Of a stretch of 20,000 bases of DNA, positions 2,684 to 20,000 are shown in pieces (within the stretch, counting starts at the first letter, position 1; every line of letters begins with the position of its first letter). The notes below the pieces were generated by a model. The model was given only the letters and a program-made list of their open reading frames with translations. It searched no databases and was not told the origin of the DNA. Made by a program: the position numbers and the translations under genes. The DNA is from an uncultured virus (IMG/VR IMGVR_UViG_2236876025_000003) (lineage: Duplodnaviria > Heunggongvirae > Uroviricota > Caudoviricetes), in the IMG/VR virus record IMGVR_UViG_2236876025_000003; one strand, written 5' to 3'.

Positions 2684-3358
2684 ATGAGAATTCTAGACAA
2701 TAATGTATTGATTGATGAAAATAAATCGGTCGATCATCTTTCTGCTGGCGTATTTCTTATTCCAGGTGTTGGAACTATTCCGATGGCTTACGGTAGAATT
2801 GTTAAGCTTGGCGAAGGACTTGATAATCCGGAAGTCGAAAATGATAAAATTCCATTTTTCGTAAACGTGAATGACTACGTGGTTTATAATCCAGGTGTGG
2901 CGATCCCGATCGAAACCGTAATAAAGAAAGATGGTGTAACTAATAAAAAGAAGAATTTTAAATTAAGCGCAGGTGAATGTATGTTGGTGCTCGAAGAAGA
3001 AGATGGAAAGACCATCGGTATTAAGAAAATGCTTGAAAACTATCTTTTGCTGAAGATGGAAACCAATGCAGACAAGAAAAGCGGCAATAAGATTTATTGT
3101 CCGGAATATAACGCAGACAGTAGTATCGTTACTGGCACTGTCATTATGACTGGCCCGGGCCGTTATAACTATAAGCTCCGTAAGCAAGTTCCATGTCAGG
3201 CAAAGGTTGGCGATGTTGTTGCATTTGCAAGCGTAAAGAAGATTGCGCTCAATATTCCAGTAAAACAGGCAGACGGTAAAATCGTAAAAGAACAGTATTT
3301 TATGATTCCTGATACCGCAGTAGAAGCAATTTTGGAAAACGATGAAGCGCTCAACTAA
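2684..3358 (+). CDS. groES: Tandem double GroES (Cpn10) co-chaperonin
   Basis: Two GroES-like repeats: MRILDNNVLI..SAGVFLIP..YGRIVKLGEG..VNVNDYVVY and MLENYLLLK..SGNKIYCP..TGTVIMTGPG..AKVGDVVAF..YFMIPDTAVEAIL. GGAG SD upstream. Confidence 0.85.
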   Translation: MRILDNNVLIDENKSVDHLSAGVFLIPGVGTIPMAYGRIVKLGEGLDNPEVENDKIPFFVNVNDYVVYNPGVAIPIETVIKKDGVTNKKKNFKLSAGECMLVLEEEDGKTIGIKKMLENYLLLKMETNADKKSGNKIYCPEYNADSSIVTGTVIMTGPGRYNYKLRKQVPCQAKVGDVVAFASVKKIALNIPVKQADGKIVKEQYFMIPDTAVEAILENDEALN

Positions 3359-3659
3359 AATAATTATCGGTGTAAGCATTGTTGTTTACTCTTTTATAAT
3401 AGGTCTTTTTGGCCTATTCGGAGAGAGTATTCAAAATGCTTTATTTTTCTTTTTAAAGAATGTCTTGCCATATATTTTCATTTTATTCGGTTATTTTCTT
3501 GCTGTATTTTTACCAATAAGAATTACACAGGCATTGGAAGAAAATAAAAAAAGGCAAGAAGAATTTAATAAAGATGTAGAAATGGTATTACGCGCAAAAA
3601 GAGAAAAGGAAATTCAAGAAAATATTCTTAATGCGCTAACAGATGAGGATAGAGTATGA
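3342..3659 (+). CDS. Hypothetical membrane protein (2 TM helices plus charged C-terminal tail)
   Basis: Hydrophobic segments IIIGVSIVVYSFIIGLFGLFG and VLPYIFILFGYFLAVFLPI. Confidence 0.75.
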   Translation: MKRSTKIIIGVSIVVYSFIIGLFGLFGESIQNALFFFLKNVLPYIFILFGYFLAVFLPIRITQALEENKKRQEEFNKDVEMVLRAKREKEIQENILNALTDEDRV

Positions 3660-4102
3660 GTAATGAAAATATCGTAAGAACTGCAATTAAGCCTACGCAT
3701 TATTGTGATAACGCTATAAATATCGAACCTATTGAAGTCGCACGTCATTTGAATTTTGATTTAGGAAATGTTTGGAAATATTGCGCACGTTATCTTGGCA
3801 AGCATACGCCAGGCACGGATTTAGGCAAGGCAATTTTCTATATGGACGATTTCCGTAAAAACTGGGTTGACGACGTAAATGAATGTATTTACGTGCATAA
3901 GCTCCCGCAAGAAATTATTGAAATGATGATTAAGTTCATTGACGCAGAAACTAGGCCAGAAGTAAAAAATATGTTTACTCTTGTTCTTGAAATTACGACA
4001 GAAAATCGTATTCGTGATATTAAAGAATTTGACCTCGTCAGATATGAACTTTTACAATATGCTAAGACATTTCCGGATGCGGACTTGAAAGACTTAGAGT
4101 GA
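3656..4102 (+). CDS. DUF3310-family protein (T7 gp1.7 nucleotide kinase-like)
   Basis: KPTHY..IEPIEV..LNFDLGNVWKYCARY..K..DLGKAIFY is the DUF3310 signature. Confidence 0.8.
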   Translation: MSNENIVRTAIKPTHYCDNAINIEPIEVARHLNFDLGNVWKYCARYLGKHTPGTDLGKAIFYMDDFRKNWVDDVNECIYVHKLPQEIIEMMIKFIDAETRPEVKNMFTLVLEITTENRIRDIKEFDLVRYELLQYAKTFPDADLKDLE

Positions 4103-4109
4103 GGTTGAT

Positions 4110-4490
4110 ATGCTTACAATCTCTAATGTCAGAGTTCTTCCGTTAAAATTTAAACTTAAAAATGGTGTCGTTGGTTTAGCTCAAGTATCATTCAAGGGTG
4201 GTTTGCTTATAACTGGCCTTGAACTTATTGAACGCAATAACAAACGATTTATCCAATATCCAAAGAATCCGAATAATAATAGGGGCCTTTGTTATTGTCA
4301 GCCATTGAATTCTGTATTATCAGGCGTCATCGAAAAGAAAGTTTTCGAAGTCTATGATAAACTTAAAAACCAGCAAGTCGGTAATGTAGACCTAAACGAT
4401 GATTTCGTTGATACTGCAATAACCGAGCTTTGCAACACGTTCCACCTCAATACAAGCGACGAACAAAATGAAGAAACAAAAACAATTTAA
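4110..4490 (+). CDS. spoVG: SpoVG-family nucleic-acid-binding protein
   Basis: ISNVRVLP..GLAQVSF..LLITGLELIE..FIQYP..CQPLN..IEKKVFEVY matches SpoVG. GAGGT SD upstream. Confidence 0.8.
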   Translation: MLTISNVRVLPLKFKLKNGVVGLAQVSFKGGLLITGLELIERNNKRFIQYPKNPNNNRGLCYCQPLNSVLSGVIEKKVFEVYDKLKNQQVGNVDLNDDFVDTAITELCNTFHLNTSDEQNEETKTI

Positions 4491-4758
4491 AATGCCACCG
4501 CTTTTTAAAAAAGATCGTGACATGTTGTCGATTATAAACAATCCTGAAAAAATGAAGGCATTGAAAGAAGTAGTCGACCAAGCTGCAAAAGTTTCTGAAA
4601 ATCTAAAACATTTTAAAGATTTGCAGGCATGGTATGCTTATGTTATTACTATCCTGCCAGACTTTGAAAATATGTCTAACTTCAAAAATCAATTGGAAGC
4701 ATTAATAAATGAATATTGTAATGAATCAGAAAGAAATAACACCGTTGAACATGGTTAA
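4468..4758 (+). CDS. Hypothetical protein, 96 aa
   Basis: ORF tiles the operon and overlaps its neighbours; start uncertain. Confidence 0.65.
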   Translation: MKKQKQFKMPPLFKKDRDMLSIINNPEKMKALKEVVDQAAKVSENLKHFKDLQAWYAYVITILPDFENMSNFKNQLEALINEYCNESERNNTVEHG

Positions 4759-4933
4759 GACTGTATATGCATCAGTTTTAGAAGACCTGCATGAACATTT
4801 CGAAGACTATGCCAAGGTTTTTGTTAAAAATTACGACACATATAATGAAGAAGAAATGAAGGTAATTATTAACAAGAATGATGAACTCAGTAAAAAGATT
4901 AACGCATTTTTAGGAAAGAACAAGCTTGTATGA
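4709..4933 (+). CDS. Hypothetical protein, up to 74 aa
   Basis: Fills the gap; ATGA overlap with the next gene; start uncertain (4709, 4721 or 4751). Confidence 0.6.
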   Translation: MNIVMNQKEITPLNMVKTVYASVLEDLHEHFEDYAKVFVKNYDTYNEEEMKVIINKNDELSKKINAFLGKNKLV

Positions 4934-5229
4934 GTTTTAAACTAGGACACACGTATGACGCGGCAGACGGTAATAAATATACTTGTATAATGCTGGAAAA
5001 CGGTTTTGGAATATTTAAGCTTAATAAAATTCAGAAGCGTTTTAAAATTACCAAATATTGCGGCGTTGATTCAGTTATTCAATATGGTAATGTTTTAATT
5101 AAATCTGAAACTATTGCGCCGAAGGACGATGATGAATTTGATTTGCCCAAACAGCCAGTAATTTACACGTTGAACAAAAATAATGAAAGGTATATAGATG
5201 TTTTCAAACGACACAAAGCAGCAAACTAA
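4930..5229 (+). CDS. Hypothetical protein, 99 aa
   Basis: ATGA-coupled start; small beta-rich N-terminus (FKLGHTY..YTCIM). Confidence 0.75.
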   Translation: MSFKLGHTYDAADGNKYTCIMLENGFGIFKLNKIQKRFKITKYCGVDSVIQYGNVLIKSETIAPKDDDEFDLPKQPVIYTLNKNNERYIDVFKRHKAAN

Positions 5230-5890
5230 AGTAGAAAAAAATTCAGCGAATATCGAAGTCGATAATCCGGAAACTGAAGAACAGCAGACTTCGGAACAAG
5301 TTGAAGGTCAGCCGGTAAATCTTGGCGAACTTGGTAATTATTTCGATGTTGTTCGTAATAATTATTTTGAAGTCAATCGTGTAATTTTTATAATTGGTCC
5401 GATTACTTGGGAAAACATGATACACGTCATTCAGAAGCTCTCTTTCTATGATGATGGTTCCAAGAATCCGATTACAATTTATATTTCCTCACCAGGAGGC
5501 GAATGTGATGCTGGTTTCGCAGTTATTGACTGCATGAACAAGCTTAAATCGAAAGGCATCGTAATCAATACGATTTGTATGGGTTCATGTTCTTCTATGG
5601 CATCCGTTATTTTGGCAAGTGGAACTATTGGCAATCGCTATGCATTCCCGTCATCAAGAATTATGATTCATCAGGCTGGTATCGAAGCTACTGGCGGTAA
5701 GTTGCAGGATATTCAGATTATTCAGCACGAACTCCAGGTTTGGACTGACTGTATGAATAAGATTTTCAAAAAGCAAACAAATAAGACGATCGATGAACTT
5801 AAGAAACTTACTTCATTCGATAATTATATGTCTGCTTCTGAAGCTAAACGAATCGGTCTTGTAGACCATGTAAATGCAAAGATGGTATGA
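5198..5890 (+). CDS. clpP: ClpP-type protease subunit
   Basis: RVIFIIGPI, ITIYISSPGG, GSCSSMASVILASG (Ser), SRIMIHQ (His), FDNYMSASEA (Asp), GLVD. Acidic N-terminal extension. Confidence 0.92.
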   Translation: MFSNDTKQQTKVEKNSANIEVDNPETEEQQTSEQVEGQPVNLGELGNYFDVVRNNYFEVNRVIFIIGPITWENMIHVIQKLSFYDDGSKNPITIYISSPGGECDAGFAVIDCMNKLKSKGIVINTICMGSCSSMASVILASGTIGNRYAFPSSRIMIHQAGIEATGGKLQDIQIIQHELQVWTDCMNKIFKKQTNKTIDELKKLTSFDNYMSASEAKRIGLVDHVNAKMV

Positions 5891-6144
5891 TTAAAGAATT
5901 AGTTGACAATATCTTATCAATAGATAATATAGAAGAAACTTTCTTAGGCCTTGATGATGAGTCTACAAAAGAGTATTATGCTCTTTTGATAGCCTCTCTA
6001 GGCTATTTTAATTATCTAATTATTTCTAACGTATTTGCGGCGTTATTACATAATATCATTGAAAACGCAAAACACGTAACAAAAGAAGATCTTGATGAAA
6101 TTTTTGAATATCTGATGGATTTAAGTTTAAACGAGATTAAATAA
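5887..6144 (+). CDS. Hypothetical protein, 85 aa
   Basis: ATGA overlap with clpP. Confidence 0.7.
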   Translation: MIKELVDNILSIDNIEETFLGLDDESTKEYYALLIASLGYFNYLIISNVFAALLHNIIENAKHVTKEDLDEIFEYLMDLSLNEIK

Positions 6145-6145
6145 T

Positions 6146-6547
6146 ATGGAAGAACTGAACCATAAAAAATCACTATTGACTTATCTTAAAAATTTGTCAA
6201 AGACGACTACCACAAAAACCCAAAAAGAAACAAACGATTATGACGGTATAAAAGCCATCATTGAATTTCTCCATATGGATGGTGCAGACGATTGTATTTT
6301 ACAAATTGCCGAAAAGCTGACAATCGATAGCGAATATGACGATTTTTATGAACACTTTGAAAATCTGGATTCCGTTCTCAATCTTATTTGTTTAAAAGAA
6401 ACTGAACCAGAAAGATATTATAATGTAGTTCATTTTGAAAATATCTTAATAAATATTTTGGCTTCTATTATGGGCCTTAAATATAGAATTGTACTTAATC
6501 CAGAAGACTTATTACATCCGTATTATTTGACATTAACGCATAAATAA
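6146..6547 (+). CDS. Hypothetical protein, 133 aa
   Basis: Starts 1 nt after the previous stop. Confidence 0.75.
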   Translation: MEELNHKKSLLTYLKNLSKTTTTKTQKETNDYDGIKAIIEFLHMDGADDCILQIAEKLTIDSEYDDFYEHFENLDSVLNLICLKETEPERYYNVVHFENILINILASIMGLKYRIVLNPEDLLHPYYLTLTHK

Positions 6548-6559
6548 CAAAAAGAGAAT

Positions 6560-6567
6560 CATAAATA
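6560..6567 (+). promoter_or_regulatory. Possible late promoter variant CATAAATA
   Basis: One mismatch to TATAAATA, intergenic, 20 nt before ATG 6588; a second copy at 6539-6546. Confidence 0.35.
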
Positions 6568-6587
6568 TATAAAATTGGTATTAAACA

Positions 6588-7646
6588 ATGAGTAATGATT
6601 TCTTAGAATACTATCATCGTGAAAGTAAGAAACATGCTGTTACTGAAGAAGAACAGCTTGCTCTTCATAAAAAACAAATGGAGATGGAGTCTAAAAGACA
6701 CCAATTAGAAGACGACGACGATTTTTATAATGAAGAAGTGCCTGTACAGGAATCTACACGCGTTAATGTGCCTACGAAAAAACTTCCGCCTAAACGTCCG
6801 ATTGTTCCGCCTGCACCACGTCAGGTACCATCTCGACCGGCAGCTGTGCCAGCTACACCAGCACCGGCACCGGTTAATCGTGTACGCACACGTGCATCAT
6901 CCCAAATGGATGAAGCTCTTGCTATGATTGATAAAATCACTGACAAGATTACTGGCATGTTTTTTAAATATGGTTTTGACGGTCTTGAAAAGATTAGTCG
7001 TCATTTAAATGAAGATATTGAAGAAATTGTAAATCCGCAGCCAACATATCGAGAAGATTATAATGAATCTTATAATGCGAACGAAGAACGCATACTCGAA
7101 CTCGAAGAAGAAAATAATAAACTCCGTAGATTACTCGAAAGACAGTTAGAACGTAGCAAGGCAGAAGCTGCTGAAACGCCTGTTGCACGTAAGCCAGTAA
7201 AGCCTGTTATCGAAGAAACTACGATTGATGAATCGGTAGACGATGTTCCAGAAGAACTTGAAGAAGTCGACGAATCATATGGAATGCCGGAAACTGATTC
7301 TGAAAAACTAAACGAACAATTTATTTCCATGAACCAAAACATGGATATTAATGCTCTGGGCGCATCGTTGACACAACAAGCTGCAATACAAAAACGTAGT
7401 GAATCCGCTGGTGATACAAGACTGGCACAGGTAGCCGCACGTGCAGAGATGCTCCAACAATCGATGAATAAAAAAATCGATGATAAAATTGCGTCTGTCG
7501 AACAACAACAAGCAGAGTCATTCCAACAATCTGAAGAATTGGAAATTATTGATGTCGAAGAACCGACACAGCCAATCGAAAATGTAAAGTCTACTCCTGC
7601 TGCAGAATCTAAGAAAAAAGTCTCTAAAAAGAAAAAGTCTAAATAA
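6588..7646 (+). CDS. Hypothetical low-complexity protein (Pro-rich, acidic and coiled-coil segments, basic tail), 352 aa
   Basis: [52 protein letters not shown]-terminal [11 protein letters not shown]. Confidence 0.85.
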
Positions 7647-7903
7647 TGAAAAATAAAAATAAAAAAGATCTAAAACCTAAGTCTGAGAAAACAAATATAT
7701 CTGAAGTGGAGGTAGAGGGAACGGTAATAGAAGCCAGGCCCAATGCCATGTTTGATGTGAAATTGGACAATGATAACGTAGTTCTATGTACAATTTGCGG
7801 CAAGATAAGAGTTAATCGTATTCGAATCTTGCCAGGTGATCGCGTTAAAGTTGGTCTGAGTATATACGATTTAAATAAAGGAAGAATACTTTTTAGATTA
7901 TGA
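7646..7903 (+). CDS. infA: Translation initiation factor IF-1
   Basis: [53 protein letters not shown] is the IF-1 S1 fold; Lys-rich N-terminal extension. Confidence 0.95.
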
Positions 7904-14624: not shown

Positions 14625-15389
14625 TTATCTGTTTTTCGTCAAGAACTTATTTTTTATTTCAGGCGTAGTCAAGAACTCGATTCGCATATCCTTCAAGCGT
14701 TTTAACGGCTTTATATTCAATTCGTTTTCTACCGTCGTACCGTGCTTGCCGATTAAATACGCGCTAAATGCCCAATATATGTCATTCGGCTCCGCATAAC
14801 CGTATACTATGACTGGAATATGCGTATATTTTTTCTTCTCGTTGCCCCATGCGCTTGCAAACGTATATGCTACATCGACAGACGTAGAATACGAATTATA
14901 TTCCTTTGACATGTTATCAAGATATTTCAACAGGTCTTCAGGTCGTTCACTCGTGGCTCGCCAGGCATCATATACGTCTTTCTTTAAAGAAATCCCGCGG
15001 AATACCTTGATATAACCCTTTTTAAACTTGTTCAAGAATTCAAGAATGTCCCTAATCTGCTTAGGGAATTTTCCAGCCATGTTATACAGTTCATCGACAG
15101 TCATGATGTCATTGTAATAATCCCTGAATTTCTTGAATTTTTCAGGATTCGTTTCCATGCCCTTGTCAATGATACCGTCCAATGCAGCAGATATCAATGT
15201 AGCATTGTCACGTTTCTTATTATGCATCCATTTGGCACCGTCTCGGTCCGTATACGTGTCATCTTCGACATAAGGATATTCAATGTCTTTCTTATGTGCA
15301 TTCATGTTATCTATATGAGTCTGAAACCTGTCAGCGTCATATAAAGAATAATCTGGATTCTCTGTTAAAAACTGCTTAAAATTTTTCAT
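14625..15389 (-). CDS. Putative R-S-E class ADP-ribosyltransferase, 254 aa
   Basis: IKVFRG, NSYSTS..VAYTFA, VENEL (ExE). N-terminus MKNFKQFLTE. Paralog of the N-terminal half of 15386..16840. Confidence 0.7.
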   Translation of the reverse strand: MKNFKQFLTENPDYSLYDADRFQTHIDNMNAHKKDIEYPYVEDDTYTDRDGAKWMHNKKRDNATLISAALDGIIDKGMETNPEKFKKFRDYYNDIMTVDELYNMAGKFPKQIRDILEFLNKFKKGYIKVFRGISLKKDVYDAWRATSERPEDLLKYLDNMSKEYNSYSTSVDVAYTFASAWGNEKKKYTHIPVIVYGYAEPNDIYWAFSAYLIGKHGTTVENELNIKPLKRLKDMRIEFLTTPEIKNKFLTKNR

Positions 15390-16840
15390 CGTCCTACCTG
15401 TTGCAATGCTATGCCGTTCTTTACAATAAACGAATACCTGTTACCATTACTGGATATAATACCGTCAAATGTCATTGTATTCAAGTCAAAATCAATCCTG
15501 TCAAACAACCTAAGTATTATTCTTATAATACATGCGCCACGTTTATTGACAACCGTATATTTGTTGTTAGGCAACTTGACAATATAATATTCTTCTGCAT
15601 GCCATACACTCGGTTCTCGAGAATATATGTTACCAGGAGCTCTCTGTATGTCCTTTGCCTTGAAATTAAATAATTCCTTACCTGTTACACAGTTGACAAG
15701 CTGCATGCTCCTATCCTCGTTATATACCATTATATTCTCGCTGTCAACAGCCTTGATATATCGATTTATCCTTGCATATTTCTTTCCTATCTGACCTACG
15801 CCTTCCTTGTAGATATACCAGTGATTGCCTTCGTTGGTATCTTCATTATATTCTGTATCAGCTATCGCATATATATTTTCCTTTATTTCGGAAATATACA
15901 TACCGAAAGGCGTTATCATCTTGTTATTCTTTACGAACACATGGAAACCGCCGAGCCTGCAGTCTAATACGGTTTTGTCGAAAGAATCAGCTTTCTCAAC
16001 CTTGTCGAATACTTTTTTCGGATCCTTGGTAGCATCCAGCTGAGCCTGGATCTTCTTTACGTCAAGAATACTTTGCGCATACGTCTTACGTTCCTTGTCG
16101 ATGTCATGCACGATTCTTAAATCATGCAGTTCCTTAAGGTTATTGACGTTCAACTCGTATTCACCGCAACCGCGATGCCTTCCCATCAAATACGCCGTAA
16201 ACGCCCAGTATATGTCATTCGGTTCTACCATGGCAGATATCATCACAGGCACAAGCTTGTCATTGTCTATCGCATCCGCCATAAAACCGAACGCCGTCAT
16301 AGGACATGTACTGAACGAATTGAATAGCTTCGTCCTGTTGTCTATCTTGTTGAGCAACGATAGGCTAGGCTTGCCGGAATTCTTGATATATTTCTCGTAG
16401 TCGATTTTCTTCAAGATAAACCCTCTATAGACTTTAATCCTGCCGGTCTTGTATTTACCAAGGAACTTCAAAATCTCGTCTATCGTGTCCTTATGCGCGG
16501 AACAGAGCGAATAAAAATCGTCTTCCCGACCGCTCCTGTACAGTTCTGCTTCCTGCTTCGCATAAGGAATCCCGTCATCGGTCATCGAATCGATTATGCC
16601 ATCCAAAATCGCGGACTTCAACGTCATGTCGTCTCTCGCCTTGACCTCAATCCATTTCAATCCCTTATAATCCTGGTATCTCTTGTCATCCTGATACTGA
16701 ATCATATTCTGGCGCATCTGGTTCTTTTCTTTATTCCGCTCCTGCGCCTTATGTACCTGGTCGATATGATGCCCAAGCCTACGCATGTCCAGCGACGTAA
16801 ATTCCGCGCTCTCGCCTATAAAATCCCTTAAACTCTTCAT
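15386..16840 (-). CDS. Putative R-S-E class ADP-ribosyltransferase with beta-repeat C-terminal extension, 484 aa
   Basis: IKVYRG, NSFST..TAFGF, GEYEL (ExE). EPNDIYWAF shared with its neighbour. N-terminus MKSLRDFIGES. Confidence 0.7.
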   Translation of the reverse strand: MKSLRDFIGESAEFTSLDMRRLGHHIDQVHKAQERNKEKNQMRQNMIQYQDDKRYQDYKGLKWIEVKARDDMTLKSAILDGIIDSMTDDGIPYAKQEAELYRSGREDDFYSLCSAHKDTIDEILKFLGKYKTGRIKVYRGFILKKIDYEKYIKNSGKPSLSLLNKIDNRTKLFNSFSTCPMTAFGFMADAIDNDKLVPVMISAMVEPNDIYWAFTAYLMGRHRGCGEYELNVNNLKELHDLRIVHDIDKERKTYAQSILDVKKIQAQLDATKDPKKVFDKVEKADSFDKTVLDCRLGGFHVFVKNNKMITPFGMYISEIKENIYAIADTEYNEDTNEGNHWYIYKEGVGQIGKKYARINRYIKAVDSENIMVYNEDRSMQLVNCVTGKELFNFKAKDIQRAPGNIYSREPSVWHAEEYYIVKLPNNKYTVVNKRGACIIRIILRLFDRIDFDLNTMTFDGIISSNGNRYSFIVKNGIALQQVGR

Positions 16841-16863: not shown

Positions 16864-16894
16864 GTTTACAAATCGGAGAATGTTTACTATATTT
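16864..16894 (+). promoter_or_regulatory. Early-type promoter
   Basis: TTTACA (16865-16870) - 17 bp - TATATT (16888-16893); ATG 16901 follows after 7 nt. Confidence 0.75.
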
Positions 16895-16900
16895 AATAAA

Positions 16901-17416
16901 ATGGACGCAAATTTAATGACGGTATTCAAACATGCCGAAGAAAGACTGAAAGAAAAATACCCGTGCTATAAAATATATTTCTATAATACCCTGGCACGGT
17001 ATGACATCGCCTCGAAACAGTCGATGACACTCGATATCATCTACAATGACACGAATGTCACTTTCCAGTATGACGAAGACCTCAACCCTTGGTCATCCAC
17101 CATCGAACCGCTCAAGTTGCAGCTGACAAAGACCTACGAGATCGGCGACAAGGGAAAATACAGAAACCCGCTTCCGGGCTTCATCGACATACCGATCCCA
17201 GTAAAATGCTTCGATACCGTCATGAAGAACCTCGACATAAATATCATATTCAACGAAATCCAGGACATAAACGACTTAATGGCCAGCAGGGAAACAATCG
17301 AACCACACGGATTCCTCGCACTCACGCAGGCGACATATAGAAAAATCGCCTTCCTGCTGGACCTAGCGAAAATACCAGAAAATGAGAATATACATACGAA
17401 AATTCGAAGACCGTAA
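16901..17416 (+). CDS. Hypothetical early protein, 171 aa
   Basis: Start moved from 16880 (inside the promoter spacer) to in-frame ATG 16901. C-terminal AFLLDLAKI motif. Confidence 0.75.
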   Translation: MDANLMTVFKHAEERLKEKYPCYKIYFYNTLARYDIASKQSMTLDIIYNDTNVTFQYDEDLNPWSSTIEPLKLQLTKTYEIGDKGKYRNPLPGFIDIPIPVKCFDTVMKNLDINIIFNEIQDINDLMASRETIEPHGFLALTQATYRKIAFLLDLAKIPENENIHTKIRRP

Positions 17417-17807
17417 ACAGACACTATACTACTATATCGACGTAAACGACATCGTAAATGACACCGCACCGGAAGTCAGCATAAACACCTATACCATAAC
17501 AATACCCGACGTCGTAAACGGCAATATAAAATTCAGACACGAAGACCGCATGAACATACGCGTCAACTATAACGACGGTCATGGCAAACCATGGGCACAG
17601 TTCCTGAACATATGCGACAACCTACAGATAAGGCTCGTCACGAACGAACATGTCCACCCGAACAAAATCCTCATGAACTGGACCAAACTGGACAAAAATA
17701 CAATACACTATATCGCAAACATACTAGAACTGGCCATCGCCATCCACAGAATCGATAAACTAAAAGATACGCCATGTATAACGAACAGCCAGAACAATAC
17801 TATATAA
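17382..17807 (+). CDS. Hypothetical protein, 141 aa
   Basis: Overlapping, tiling ORF in the early operon. Confidence 0.75.
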   Translation: MRIYIRKFEDRKQTLYYYIDVNDIVNDTAPEVSINTYTITIPDVVNGNIKFRHEDRMNIRVNYNDGHGKPWAQFLNICDNLQIRLVTNEHVHPNKILMNWTKLDKNTIHYIANILELAIAIHRIDKLKDTPCITNSQNNTI

Positions 17808-18283
17808 AATACATCAGAAACCACTTCAAAAAACTAAAGAACAGTCCGGCAGGTTTCAACGTATGCGAATCATACGACTACATCAAGTCTAATCTGGACT
17901 TCATAACGCTCGACTGCTGCCGTAGAGGAAAACCCGACATCTTTGCCAACTACGCCATATTCCATAAAAACAATTCATGGGAAGTCAGCGTTTCATCACT
18001 CTATACAGATATCAAAGCAGATATCAAAGAATTATCTATCATAAAAGTACAGTGGATGCTGCCACAGAAGCTGCTCGCCCGCGAATCTTTCAAATTCGAT
18101 TCCGCCCTGGACCTCATAAACTTCATCGATGCCGTACCGGTAGAAGAAATCATATCCAACTTGACCGCCATAACCTTCATACAGAAAGACGACAATACGA
18201 TAGAACCGAATCCAACAGACATGGCAAAAATGCTACAGTTCAGAAACGAACTCCAACTCCGCGCCGCGATGTCATCCCTATAA
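17774..18283 (+). CDS. Hypothetical protein, 169 aa
   Basis: Overlapping, tiling ORF ending at the repeat region. Confidence 0.75.
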   Translation: MYNEQPEQYYIKYIRNHFKKLKNSPAGFNVCESYDYIKSNLDFITLDCCRRGKPDIFANYAIFHKNNSWEVSVSSLYTDIKADIKELSIIKVQWMLPQKLLARESFKFDSALDLINFIDAVPVEEIISNLTAITFIQKDDNTIEPNPTDMAKMLQFRNELQLRAAMSSL

Positions 18284-18470
18284 AAACCGGACCGGATTGC
18301 AAAAAATTTTTAAAAAATTTTTCAAATGACATCATTTCCAAAATTACGCCCGCCCGGGGGGAAAATTTCCCGTATACCGAAAAACCGAAAACCGATAATA
18401 GGATTAACCGAAACCGAAAACCGGATTAACCGAAAAATTTTAAAAAATTTTTTATTTTTAGAAGAGACCG
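18284..18470. repeat. Same-strand ACCG repeat array with duplicated A/T palindromic block
   Basis: ACCG at 18286, 18291, 18376, 18384, 18391, 18407, 18413, 18420, 18429 and 18467. GGATTAACCGAAA twice. ACCGGATT..AAAAATTTT(T)AAAAAATTTTT at 18291-18322 and 18420-18453. Confidence 0.85.
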
Positions 18471-18591
18471 ACACACACGGCAAGATGCGCCACTAAAGCC
18501 CCCGGCCTGTCGGACGCCGAGGTTTAATGCCTATAGGGACCTAAACACATTTTTTTGAAGCCCGATCTCAATTTGCACTGGGGTGTCACGG

Positions 18592-18647
18592 ATAGGGGGG
18601 CCCCCGGGGGGGGCGCCCCCCCTATTTTGACGTCGGAAATGACGTCG
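18592..18647. repeat. G/C homopolymer palindrome cluster followed by TGACGTCG direct repeat
   Basis: ATAGGGGGG-CCCCCGGGGGGGGCGC-CCCCCCTAT, containing the perfect palindrome G7-CG-C7 (18607-18622). TGACGTCG at 18628 and 18640. Confidence 0.85.
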
Positions 18648-18771
18648 TGAAACTTGACATATCTGAGTTATATCGTCACAGATCCCGTCGATATCTCAGG
18701 CATTTTGACAGACATGCCGACGGTCGTCGTGTCGGGTACAGTGTCAGACAGTATGACGACGGCAGGGACGG

Positions 18772-18802
18772 GTTTACGAACTCAGGTACAATAACTATAT
18801 TT
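18772..18802 (+). promoter_or_regulatory. Early-type promoter
   Basis: TTTACG (18773-18778) - 17 bp - TATATT (18796-18801); ATG 18809 follows after 7 nt. Confidence 0.7.
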
Positions 18803-18808
18803 GTTCTC

Positions 18809-19129
18809 ATGAATGTATGGATCACTCGCAAACGAGACTGGACCAAGTCAGGACCGGAACAGGTATACCTGACTTGCGCGAATGGGTTCTATCCCGGAGC
18901 TTTCACGAAGACTTCCGATGCCGTAATGCATTTCGCAGGAATTGAATGCACAGATGCGAATTTCCGTATACCGGATAAAGCCGTCCTAGATTGGTATTAT
19001 GTATATCCAGGAGATACGGTAATATACTGGAAAGACGGCACAAGCTATTGGAACAAGGTCAATACCGAGTCAGATGCGATTTCCCTGTGTAACGAGATGA
19101 GTTTTTTACTGGATCTGGCGAGGATATGA
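18809..19129 (+). CDS. Hypothetical early protein, 106 aa (paralog of next gene)
   Basis: Start moved from GTG 18647 to ATG 18809 on promoter geometry. C-terminus VYPG..GTSY..NEMSFLLDLARI. Confidence 0.75.
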   Translation: MNVWITRKRDWTKSGPEQVYLTCANGFYPGAFTKTSDAVMHFAGIECTDANFRIPDKAVLDWYYVYPGDTVIYWKDGTSYWNKVNTESDAISLCNEMSFLLDLARI

Positions 19130-19419
19130 TTTGTCACGTAACAACGCATATGGGACTTACAGATAGGATGGAAACAGTTACGTCGCTGGAGATGAACCAG
19201 GAGACAGGAGGGATGGACATCAATGGCGTAAGGGATTCGATTCCCGATACCAGTCCCGATCTGCCGATATTCCCTATGGACACCATCGTAGTGTACCCGG
19301 ACACGATGCTGGAATTCCTCTGTAAAGGCAAGTCGTATTCGTACAGGGTCAGGAACAAGCCCGACATGTACAGGATAATCAGCGAGGTCAATTTCCTGCT
19401 AGAGCTGGAGAAGATATGA
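19126..19419 (+). CDS. Hypothetical early protein, 97 aa (paralog of previous gene)
   Basis: ATGA overlap. C-terminus VYPD..GKSY..SEVNFLLELEKI. Confidence 0.8.
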   Translation: MICHVTTHMGLTDRMETVTSLEMNQETGGMDINGVRDSIPDTSPDLPIFPMDTIVVYPDTMLEFLCKGKSYSYRVRNKPDMYRIISEVNFLLELEKI

Positions 19420-19832
19420 TAGTAAAGGTAGCGACAGTAGAGGTACATAAGTTTCTGGCGAATGCCAAGAAATTTCTGCTGGAAGAAGCGGATAAAGGCA
19501 TTGCTCGCAGTATGGGAGAAATTCCGGATTACATGTGGGATTTCGTGTGCAGCAAGGTGACAGATGTCAAACATAACAGTAATTTCGCGGGTCTGTACGA
19601 GATTGCGGGTACGATTGCCGAATGCGATACCGAGAATAAGACAGTGAAGCCGGAGAAGGAGAATGTCCAATACCTTTGGATGATCCCGGCCGTATTCTAC
19701 GTGAAGGACGACATTACCGGTACGGACGGGTTAAGCTATGTCGAGACCAGAGGAGCGGCGAACGTATTCATTAACGAGATGCAGGTACGCATCGGCCTGA
19801 ACAAGGCTCTGGAGGAAGCAGATGAAGTGTAA
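19416..19832 (+). CDS. Hypothetical protein, 138 aa
   Basis: ATGA overlap with the previous gene. Confidence 0.8.
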   Translation: MIVKVATVEVHKFLANAKKFLLEEADKGIARSMGEIPDYMWDFVCSKVTDVKHNSNFAGLYEIAGTIAECDTENKTVKPEKENVQYLWMIPAVFYVKDDITGTDGLSYVETRGAANVFINEMQVRIGLNKALEEADEV

Positions 19833-20000
19833 GACAGAGACAGTGATCGGCGTGCAGGATTCGATGGAGAATGTCCTTTCCCTGGAGAAGATAGCAGATG
19901 CAGGAGGATTCTGGATATCGGGCATCAAGGAGCAGATCGGGGACCAGGTGCGCGTCGGCCGGATCGCCCTGCACCTCGGGGCGAAGGTCGTATTCACCGG
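19822..20000 (+). CDS. Hypothetical protein, 3'-truncated by window edge
   Basis: ATG 19822 opens a frame with no stop to the end of the window: MKCKTETVIGVQDSMENVLSLEKIADAGGFW... Confidence 0.65.
   Translation, partial: MKCKTETVIGVQDSMENVLSLEKIADAGGFWISGIKEQIGDQVRVGRIALHLGAKVVFT

Follow-up and report, generated by a model that had tools for sequence, protein, structure and literature searches.

The last 20 kilobases (kb) of the 71,625-base-pair (bp) linear virus record IMGVR_UViG_2236876025_000003 (G000), a stretch of 20,000 nucleotides referred to below as the window, come from an uncultured T4-like jumbo phage of the rumen. Near the right end of the window lies a non-coding gap at which the plus strand passes abruptly from a C-rich to a G-rich composition, and the question raised by this locus is what kind of site such a gap marks. 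The initial annotation, made from the letters of the window alone, had proposed a single fixed replication origin or the joined ends of a linear genome. The data presented here indicate that the gap, called the element or site 1, is very probably the left edge of a direct terminal repeat of 71–76 kb.

The base counts behind the earlier proposal were exact: positions 17701–17760 contain 18 C and 7 G, and positions 19381–19440 contain 19 G and 8 C. The gap is also the largest in the window; its full extent is 525 bp (18284–18808), reaching as far as the ATG of the following gene. The duplicated A/T block and the G/C palindrome described in it are present (Table 1). Because genes on the plus strand of this phage normally carry an excess of G (about +0.1), the G-richness on the right is for the most part unremarkable, and the true anomaly is mainly the C/A-rich left flank. 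In the window, synonymous sites had an asymmetry of −0.23 over the 2 kb preceding the element and of only +0.08 over the 2 kb following it. Twelve loci were examined, several of them near-identical, and 11 gave data. The 2 kb left of the core showed a synonymous asymmetry of −0.15 to −0.24 in 10 of these, regardless of gene direction (the exception was G006 at −0.09), and the values on the right ranged from −0.07 to +0.08. In loci of the G017 type, the raw flip was not visible at all. After correction for codon position, the switch at the element was the strongest in the 71.6-kb contig (z = 6.4; next 2.0).

A close relative, G001 (424,163 bp), has a DNA polymerase 95% identical to that of G000; in an alignment that took in 44 loci, the polymerases of G002 (415,750 bp) and G003 (411,059 bp, 98% complete) were 67% and 53% identical. 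After the subtraction of codon-position expectations, each of the three genomes showed two flips, located at 275.9 kb (z = 8.7) and 347.1 kb (z = 7.1) in G001, at 405.6 kb (z = 5.8) and 65.3 kb (z = 6.8) in G002 and at 351.3 kb (z = 3.6) and 16.2 kb (z = 7.6) in G003. The arc between the two sites measured about 71.0, 75.6 and 75.7 kb, respectively, and the flips fell in or beside intergenic A/T-block elements at both sites. Site 2 was an inverted, simpler element in all three relatives, with A/T blocks followed by short repeats, and its reverse complement in G001 resembled the repeats and block 2 of site 1. Site 2 of G003 additionally contains a tandem array (16.3–16.6 kb, L112) with units of ~25–42 bp containing GGCGGGCC, which is unrelated to the repeats elsewhere. 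No flip was detected in G004 (56% complete), and the top flip of G005 was rejected as an A/T-rich gap without the core motif.

The raw cumulative skew of G001 tracked gene direction and formed a mere local minimum at the element, the overall minimum lying elsewhere, so the skew minimum predicted for the gap was not borne out. The cumulative synonymous-site asymmetry had its genome-wide minimum at 276.4 kb in G001, 405.6 kb in G002 and 356.5 kb in G003, placing it no more than about 0.5 kb from the element in the first two genomes and about 5 kb away in the third. In this respect the proposal of a replication start gained support, and replication probably starts at the element. After detrending, the asymmetry turned at fractions of 0.50, 0.53 and 0.53 along the unique arc (0.39, 0.50 and 0.53 in the raw data). 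Inside the arc of the predicted repeat, values on the right of site 1 were +0.02 to +0.06, and those on the left of site 2 were −0.08 to −0.19; the mirror-image skew outside site 2 was strong in G001 (+0.21) and weaker in G002 and G003.

The DNA is listed for 20 sequencing runs, most of them bovine or gut metagenomes according to their records. All of these were available as contigs, so depth was taken as per-contig means from the assemblies, with levels drawn from among the contigs listed and with summed depth not equated with copy number. Contigs were placed at 80% likeness on G001 337–357 kb, across site 2. There, run X3 had depths of 825, 898, 909, 987 and 1039 inside the arc and 441 and 444 outside, and run X4 had 1041, 1094, 1094 and 1180 inside and 511, 515, 557 and 567 outside, giving ratios of means of 2.11 and 2.05. 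The same direction was seen at low depth in X11 (6.2–11.1 inside vs. 3.3–6.0 outside) and X5 (12–15.8 vs. mostly 5.5–5.8). At the element itself, an X3 contig of 10,903 bp (~11243–22145), identical to the window, had a depth of 636.6, between the two levels; a spanning contig was expected to have 593–614 with a step in the gap and ~442 or 930 with no step. In X5, a contig with a depth of 6.47 ended and the next, at 13.3, began at 18441, and X11 changed from ~2–5 on the left to 7–12 on the right. The doubling of depth at the element therefore most likely marks the start of a block packaged twice, once per chromosome end.

The same scan was applied to XacN1, a Xanthomonas jumbo phage with direct terminal repeats of 65,875 bp shown by two-fold coverage and pulsed-field size (PMC5852040). 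Over 318.8 kb, its two strongest flips (z = 5.6–8.5; next at most 3.5) lay within 0.7 kb of the repeat edges. At the repeat start, the guanine–cytosine (GC) content rose from 0.46 to 0.56, with two A/T-tract blocks within 150 bp outside it. The XacN1 repeat had collapsed in the first assembly (PMC5852040). For the rumen phages, the packaged DNA would likewise consist of repeat, unique region and repeat, ~487–495 kb in total, which assemblers collapse to a circle or near-circle of 411–424 kb; in the circular assembly the repeat is present once, and the ends of G001 and G002 overlap by 127 bp only. The predicted virion DNA was nearly constant, at 495, 491 and 487 kb for G001, G002 and G003. Of the idea that the gap is a genome end, one part thus stands: the depth doubling and the XacN1 case point to the edge of a long direct terminal repeat, seen here in its inner copy, and not to two joined unique ends.

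Several observations weigh against the terminal repeat. The depths are averages over contigs and not over reads, and the X3 value alone would place the step anywhere within 16.4–18.6 kb. Run X9 showed no step (~5.9–7.2 left and 5.1–8.1 right, with no contig over 17490–18640). The strongest data, X3 and X4, come from one sample, possibly the source of the window; the contigs were placed at 80% likeness, and their assignment to the phage of the window was deduced from their several-hundred-fold depth. Run X5 contains more than one strain, with summed depth left of the element reaching 11–13 in places, so its step may be due to strain splitting. Library bias could add depth, since the arc is GC-richer. 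The flip at site 1 of G003 reached only z = 3.6–4.1. The terminase, whose best matches were cyanophages and pelagiphages (37–42%), does not discriminate, being 35% identical to the enzymes of both XacN1 and T4. Finally, the controls with shorter repeats were uneven: flips in phage CBB were weak and none was prominent where its repeat begins, and PA5oct had one at the right edge.

The best surviving alternative, although improbable, is that the two sites are inverted true origins in a permuted or circular genome, the arc being over-represented by early replication or tandem duplication. Both flips run from C to G, the sign expected of origins, yet the same pair of flips marks the proven repeat edges of XacN1. 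A/T-rich blocks with short repeats look like origin anatomy, but the repeats are not conserved. The synonymous asymmetry rises and falls within the arc as well as within the unique region, whereas depth formed two flat levels without a gradient and had a ratio near 2 in two libraries.

Slightly less probable still is a pac site, from which headful packaging would start at the element and end ~70–75 kb past one genome length, leaving the left end alone fixed. A full two-fold step would then require nearly all virions to be the first ones filled in their packaging series, and the depth immediately right of site 2 was already low. In favor of a pac site, site 1 exceeds site 2 in both complexity and conservation; against it, a sharp flip and a separate A/T-block element mark site 2 in each of the three genomes. 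The T4-like terminase and the near-constant virion length of the three relatives, as given by headful filling, speak for this alternative. The even coverage without fixed ends that characterizes headful packaging of the T4 type was not found in the depth data, in which two levels were seen.

A single fixed bidirectional origin with ACCG iterons, as initially proposed, is very unlikely. It accounts for the genome-wide minimum of synonymous asymmetry, which the three large relatives have at the element or close to it, but not for the raw skew minimum lying elsewhere, the second flip of similar or greater strength in each large relative, the lack of ACCG conservation or the depth step. A chimeric assembly join of two phages differing in GC, suggested by the change from ~0.36 to ~0.49 near the element and the contig end 1.2 kb later, can practically be dismissed, as the same element and flanking genes occur inside independent assemblies, two of them circular, and one X3 contig spans the element without mismatch.

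The layout of the element recurs in relatives down to 50% polymerase identity and was retained in G001, G002, G003, G014, G017 and also G006. The shared order consists of A/T block 1, a linker with a GCCCG..GGGG run, variable short repeats, A/T block 2, ACACAC, ACACATTTTTT, GGGG(T/C)GTCA, the C/G-run palindrome and a tract rich in TGAC/GTCA. The A/T-block pattern and the G/C-run pattern were each found solely at the element in G000 and G001, and GGGG(T/C)GTCA occurred on the strand given here once per genome, at the element, in G000–G003 (~1–2 per genome expected by chance). The most conserved core is a candidate terminase or nicking site; its hairpin had z = −2.3, with 8 of 200 shuffles equally stable. 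The ten same-strand ACCG copies noted earlier are real: 18284–18770 holds ten on the plus and one on the minus strand, and ten within 185 bp form the densest cluster in the 71.6-kb contig (next best 5, background 0.74). Among the six aligned sequences, these repeats were the least conserved part, their counterpart being AACC/AACCAG in G001 and G002, GTAGCCATAG in the G017 type and nothing recognizable in G003. Since neither sequence nor number is kept among relatives, the short repeats make poor iterons.

Table 1. Positions of the element, its parts and the adjoining genes in the window.
Feature	Positions	Strand	Remarks
Non-coding end element (site 1)	18284..18808	.	Unique region on the left, predicted long terminal repeat on the right; 69% identical in G001
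A/T-tract block 1, A6 T5 A6 T5, quasi-palindromic	18301..18322	.	Columns conserved in the alignment of relatives
Linker: TTTCCAAAA then GCCCGCCCGGGGGG	18335..18361	+	Kept in 5 of 6 aligned sequences; absent in G003
Short direct repeats of AACCG(A) type, 7 of the 10 ACCG	18376..18432	+	Number and sequence vary among relatives
A/T-tract block 2 and ATTTTT	18433..18459	.	Block itself 18433–18453; inverted likeness at the second site of G001, 71 kb away
GAGAC..ACACAC motif	18464..18478	+	Conserved in relatives
ACACATTTTTTT motif	18545..18556	+	Conserved in relatives
GGGGTGTCA then G/C-run palindrome (18592–18625)	18580..18625	.	Most conserved core
Tract rich in TGAC/GTCA/GACGTC	18626..18770	.	Inside the predicted repeat
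Three orphan genes, strongly C/A-rich synonymous sites	16880..18283	+	Flank in the unique region; C 364, G 235, A 523, T 282
First small genes of the predicted terminal repeat	18809..20000	+	GC ~0.49 vs. 0.36 elsewhere

A DNA search of 28 related records, mostly fragments, gave three strong matches to the element (G002, G014 and G017); in G003 and G006 it was located through the skew flip and then read by eye. A two-motif pattern returned 46 metagenome and 6 viral matches, and 17 of the 52 passed the filter, some of them being the same record twice. In 4 of the 17 loci that passed, the contig began 136–269 bp to the left of the core, and no contig ended within 600 bp on its right; these starts were not used to place a cut, because repeats can break assemblies there. 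An exact 16-mer search returned G001 and one match put down to chance, a degenerate core pattern with the wrong spacing gave 32 matches regarded as chance, and weak matches in G022 and G029 proved to be short A/T stretches in a different context. A linker pattern found no match in metagenome contigs, the search through the left flanking gene found no relatives, and the search for the second site of the window's own strain returned G001 alone. No DNA match to the region was found in cultured phages. The genes flanking the element matched no Pfam or PHROG family and differ between relatives. The last gene of the left flank contains a 12-bp tandem duplication (18006–18029) that is missing from the X5 and X11 strains. 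Other functions of the gap were also considered and rejected: no credible Rfam match to a non-coding RNA was obtained (best E = 0.94), a single promoter-like site was found, the number expected by chance, and the palindrome scores as a terminator, yet directly follows no gene.

How might such ends be made? The terminase or a partner would recognize the A/T-tract blocks and the G/C core and cut or nick just inside block 2, somewhere in ~18430–18620; the cut is placed there by analogy to XacN1 and because the repeat tract of site 2 was already at low depth. Displacement synthesis between nicks at the two sites would then copy the repeat. T4-like phages start replication forks by the invasion of 3' ends, and we propose that, with the ends fixed, T4-type recombination-dependent replication would always begin at the same two points. 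The left terminus would carry a 3' end on the minus strand and invade the inner copy of the element, from which it would be extended leftward into the unique region, leaving the displaced minus strand single-stranded for a few kb. Single-stranded DNA loses C through deamination, and the plus strand left of the element would thereby become C/A-rich, with an effect fading over a few kb; the C/A-rich left flank does fade over this distance. The right end would do the mirror image at site 2, the forks would meet midway through the unique region, and displacement synthesis through the repeat would produce a weaker skew inside the arc, matching the values seen. This end-invasion account is about evenly balanced between being right and wrong. 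The gene content of G001 includes a T4-like replication and packaging set (UvsX, gp32, gp41, a UvsW-type helicase, an SbcD/gp47-like nuclease and T4-type terminase genes).

The arc also differs in codon usage. Third-codon GC in the three large genomes was 0.43, 0.44 and 0.52 inside vs. 0.28, 0.23 and 0.35 outside, a gap of 0.16–0.21, and the non-coding GC differed by only +0.04, +0.06 and −0.01. As non-coding GC hardly differs, biased gene conversion is disfavored as the sole cause, and the contrast leans towards codon selection without settling the cause. The shift is positional, depending on whether a gene lies in the arc: among G002/G003 orthologues, the 16 inside in G003 only differed by +0.28 and the 12 inside in G002 only by −0.10, compared with +0.11 for the 167 pairs outside in both (p = 3e-7 and 5e-8). 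The high-GC zone of G001 reaches 5–10 kb past both sites. Genes with repeat-like codon GC lie outside the arc at 350–360 kb and 270–275 kb, several of them having orthologues inside in G002 or G003, and the repeat edges or the genes may have moved recently.

Further genes deserve mention. The products of G000 include a T4 gp43-type polymerase, only 24–28% identical to cyanophage enzymes, and host-like proteins whose genes lie beside the polymerase gene in the window (2684–7903), namely GroES (224 amino acids (aa), with a long N-terminal part), a SpoVG-like protein, ClpP and IF-1. Two adjoining orphan genes on the minus strand (14625–16840; 254 and 484 aa) are similar to each other and matched nothing in Pfam or PHROG. 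As a weak hint at the host, the top three GroEL matches among the genomes scanned were Fibrobacterota proteins with 57–59% identity. In G001, two separate genes of ~307 aa (L006:8647–9570, minus strand, and L015:5460–6377, plus strand) each matched terminase large subunit families, and since the corresponding frames of T4 and XacN1 have 556–610 aa, the terminase may be split or duplicated. The NAD-dependent DNA ligase of G001 appears as two frames ~760 bp apart (L020:10000–12716, minus strand), possibly interrupted by an intron or an inserted gene. The same genome encodes 50 transfer RNAs (tRNAs) and one transfer-messenger RNA (L006, L012, L022, L026 and L027), with 44 of the 50 tRNA genes outside the predicted repeat.

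Long terminal repeats in jumbo phages are already known from XacN1, PA5oct and CBB. The new aspects are the length of the repeat, the occurrence of a conserved end element in an uncultured group from the rumen, the location of replication genes inside the repeat and the positional codon shift. The XacN1 paper of 2018 called 66 kb the longest known terminal repeat (PMC5852040), and a literature search covering few subscription journals returned no longer repeat and no use of paired skew flips to find repeats. Tentatively, and with a confidence falling a little short of even, we suggest that these are the longest terminal repeats yet seen (71–76 kb, ~15% of a 490-kb virion), with a family-wide end element and with ends acting as two invasion-type replication starts, and that paired flips around a codon-shifted block are a signature by which hidden giant repeats can be recognized from sequence only. 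If this is true, some 'bidirectional origins' read from skew in huge phages would be terminal-repeat edges, and such edges might also lie behind the disputed size of phage G. About 30% of huge-phage genomes have a skew described as 'indicative of bidirectional replication' (PMC7162821), and some of these signals may be repeat edges. Long terminal repeats vanish in metagenome assemblies, which therefore give a false picture of genome size, gene dosage and injection order in huge phages: a 411–424 kb assembly probably corresponds to a virion of ~490 kb, which in G001 would probably carry two copies of the genes for ligase, GroEL, thymidylate synthase and a recombination nuclease. As codon GC changes with position in the repeat, nature provides an experiment in which early-gene adaptation or gene conversion can be studied. 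To our knowledge, the copying and cutting of such long repeats are not settled, and the conserved element with its sub-motifs provides a defined target for their study.

Among the known systems, T4 packages by the headful mechanism, has circularly permuted DNA with random ends and replicates in a recombination-dependent manner. It shares the replication/recombination gene kit and the gp17-type terminase with the rumen phages and differs from them in its random ends and in the lack of comparable flips, none exceeding z = 3.6 in the same scan. The long terminal repeats of T5 and SPO1 measure ~10–13 kb (PMC5557969, PMC5852040). Repeats of this kind are produced when staggered nicks are extended, and their coverage is two-fold (PMC5557969). 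Fixed ends and a repeat made from staggered nicks are what we propose for the rumen phages as well, whereas T5 and SPO1 belong to other phage families and have repeats five to seven times shorter. The myophages PA5oct and CBB are jumbo phages with long terminal repeats of 39,080 bp (PMC7318152) and 22,456 bp (record annotation), respectively. They resemble the rumen phages in having repeats rich in small genes and a raised GC inside the repeat near its edges, and in both a flip lies within ~0.5 kb of the right edge; at the repeat start of PA5oct, the raw skew changed from −0.12/−0.20 to +0.01/+0.18. In contrast to the rumen phages, their repeats are much shorter, the flips are weaker, with no clear one at the repeat start of CBB, and no likeness to the element motifs was seen by eye.

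Phage G (JN638751, loci L342–L366) has a very strong flip at 371.7–372.2 kb (z = 9–11), and its synonymous asymmetry climbs from ~372 kb to the record end. No clear GC block is present, and a second flip is weak (24.9 kb, z ~4; end of the record, z = 3.1). The arc that begins at 372 kb and runs to the end measures ~125–127 kb, close to the difference between the sequenced 499 kb and the 626 kb said to be packaged; this size gap was ascribed to DNA modification (PMC12484599). Phage G also has a 127-bp repeat (PMC12484599), the same length as the assembly overlap of G001 and G002. The size gap as a sign of a terminal-repeat edge is a lead only.

The closest parallel is XacN1. Its ends are proven, with a repeat of 65,875 bp, whereas the repeat of 71–76 kb in the rumen phages is predicted. 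The XacN1 repeat carries the tRNA genes, while only 6 of 50, 8 of 47 and 2 of 48 tRNA genes lie inside the predicted repeat of the rumen phages, which in G001 instead contains genes for DNA ligase, GroEL, thymidylate synthase and the SbcD-like nuclease. A G/C-palindrome core, present in the rumen element, was not seen at the XacN1 edges. Common to XacN1 and the rumen phages are the T4-type terminase, the skew flips at both edges of the proven or predicted repeat, the higher GC inside and the A/T-tract blocks.
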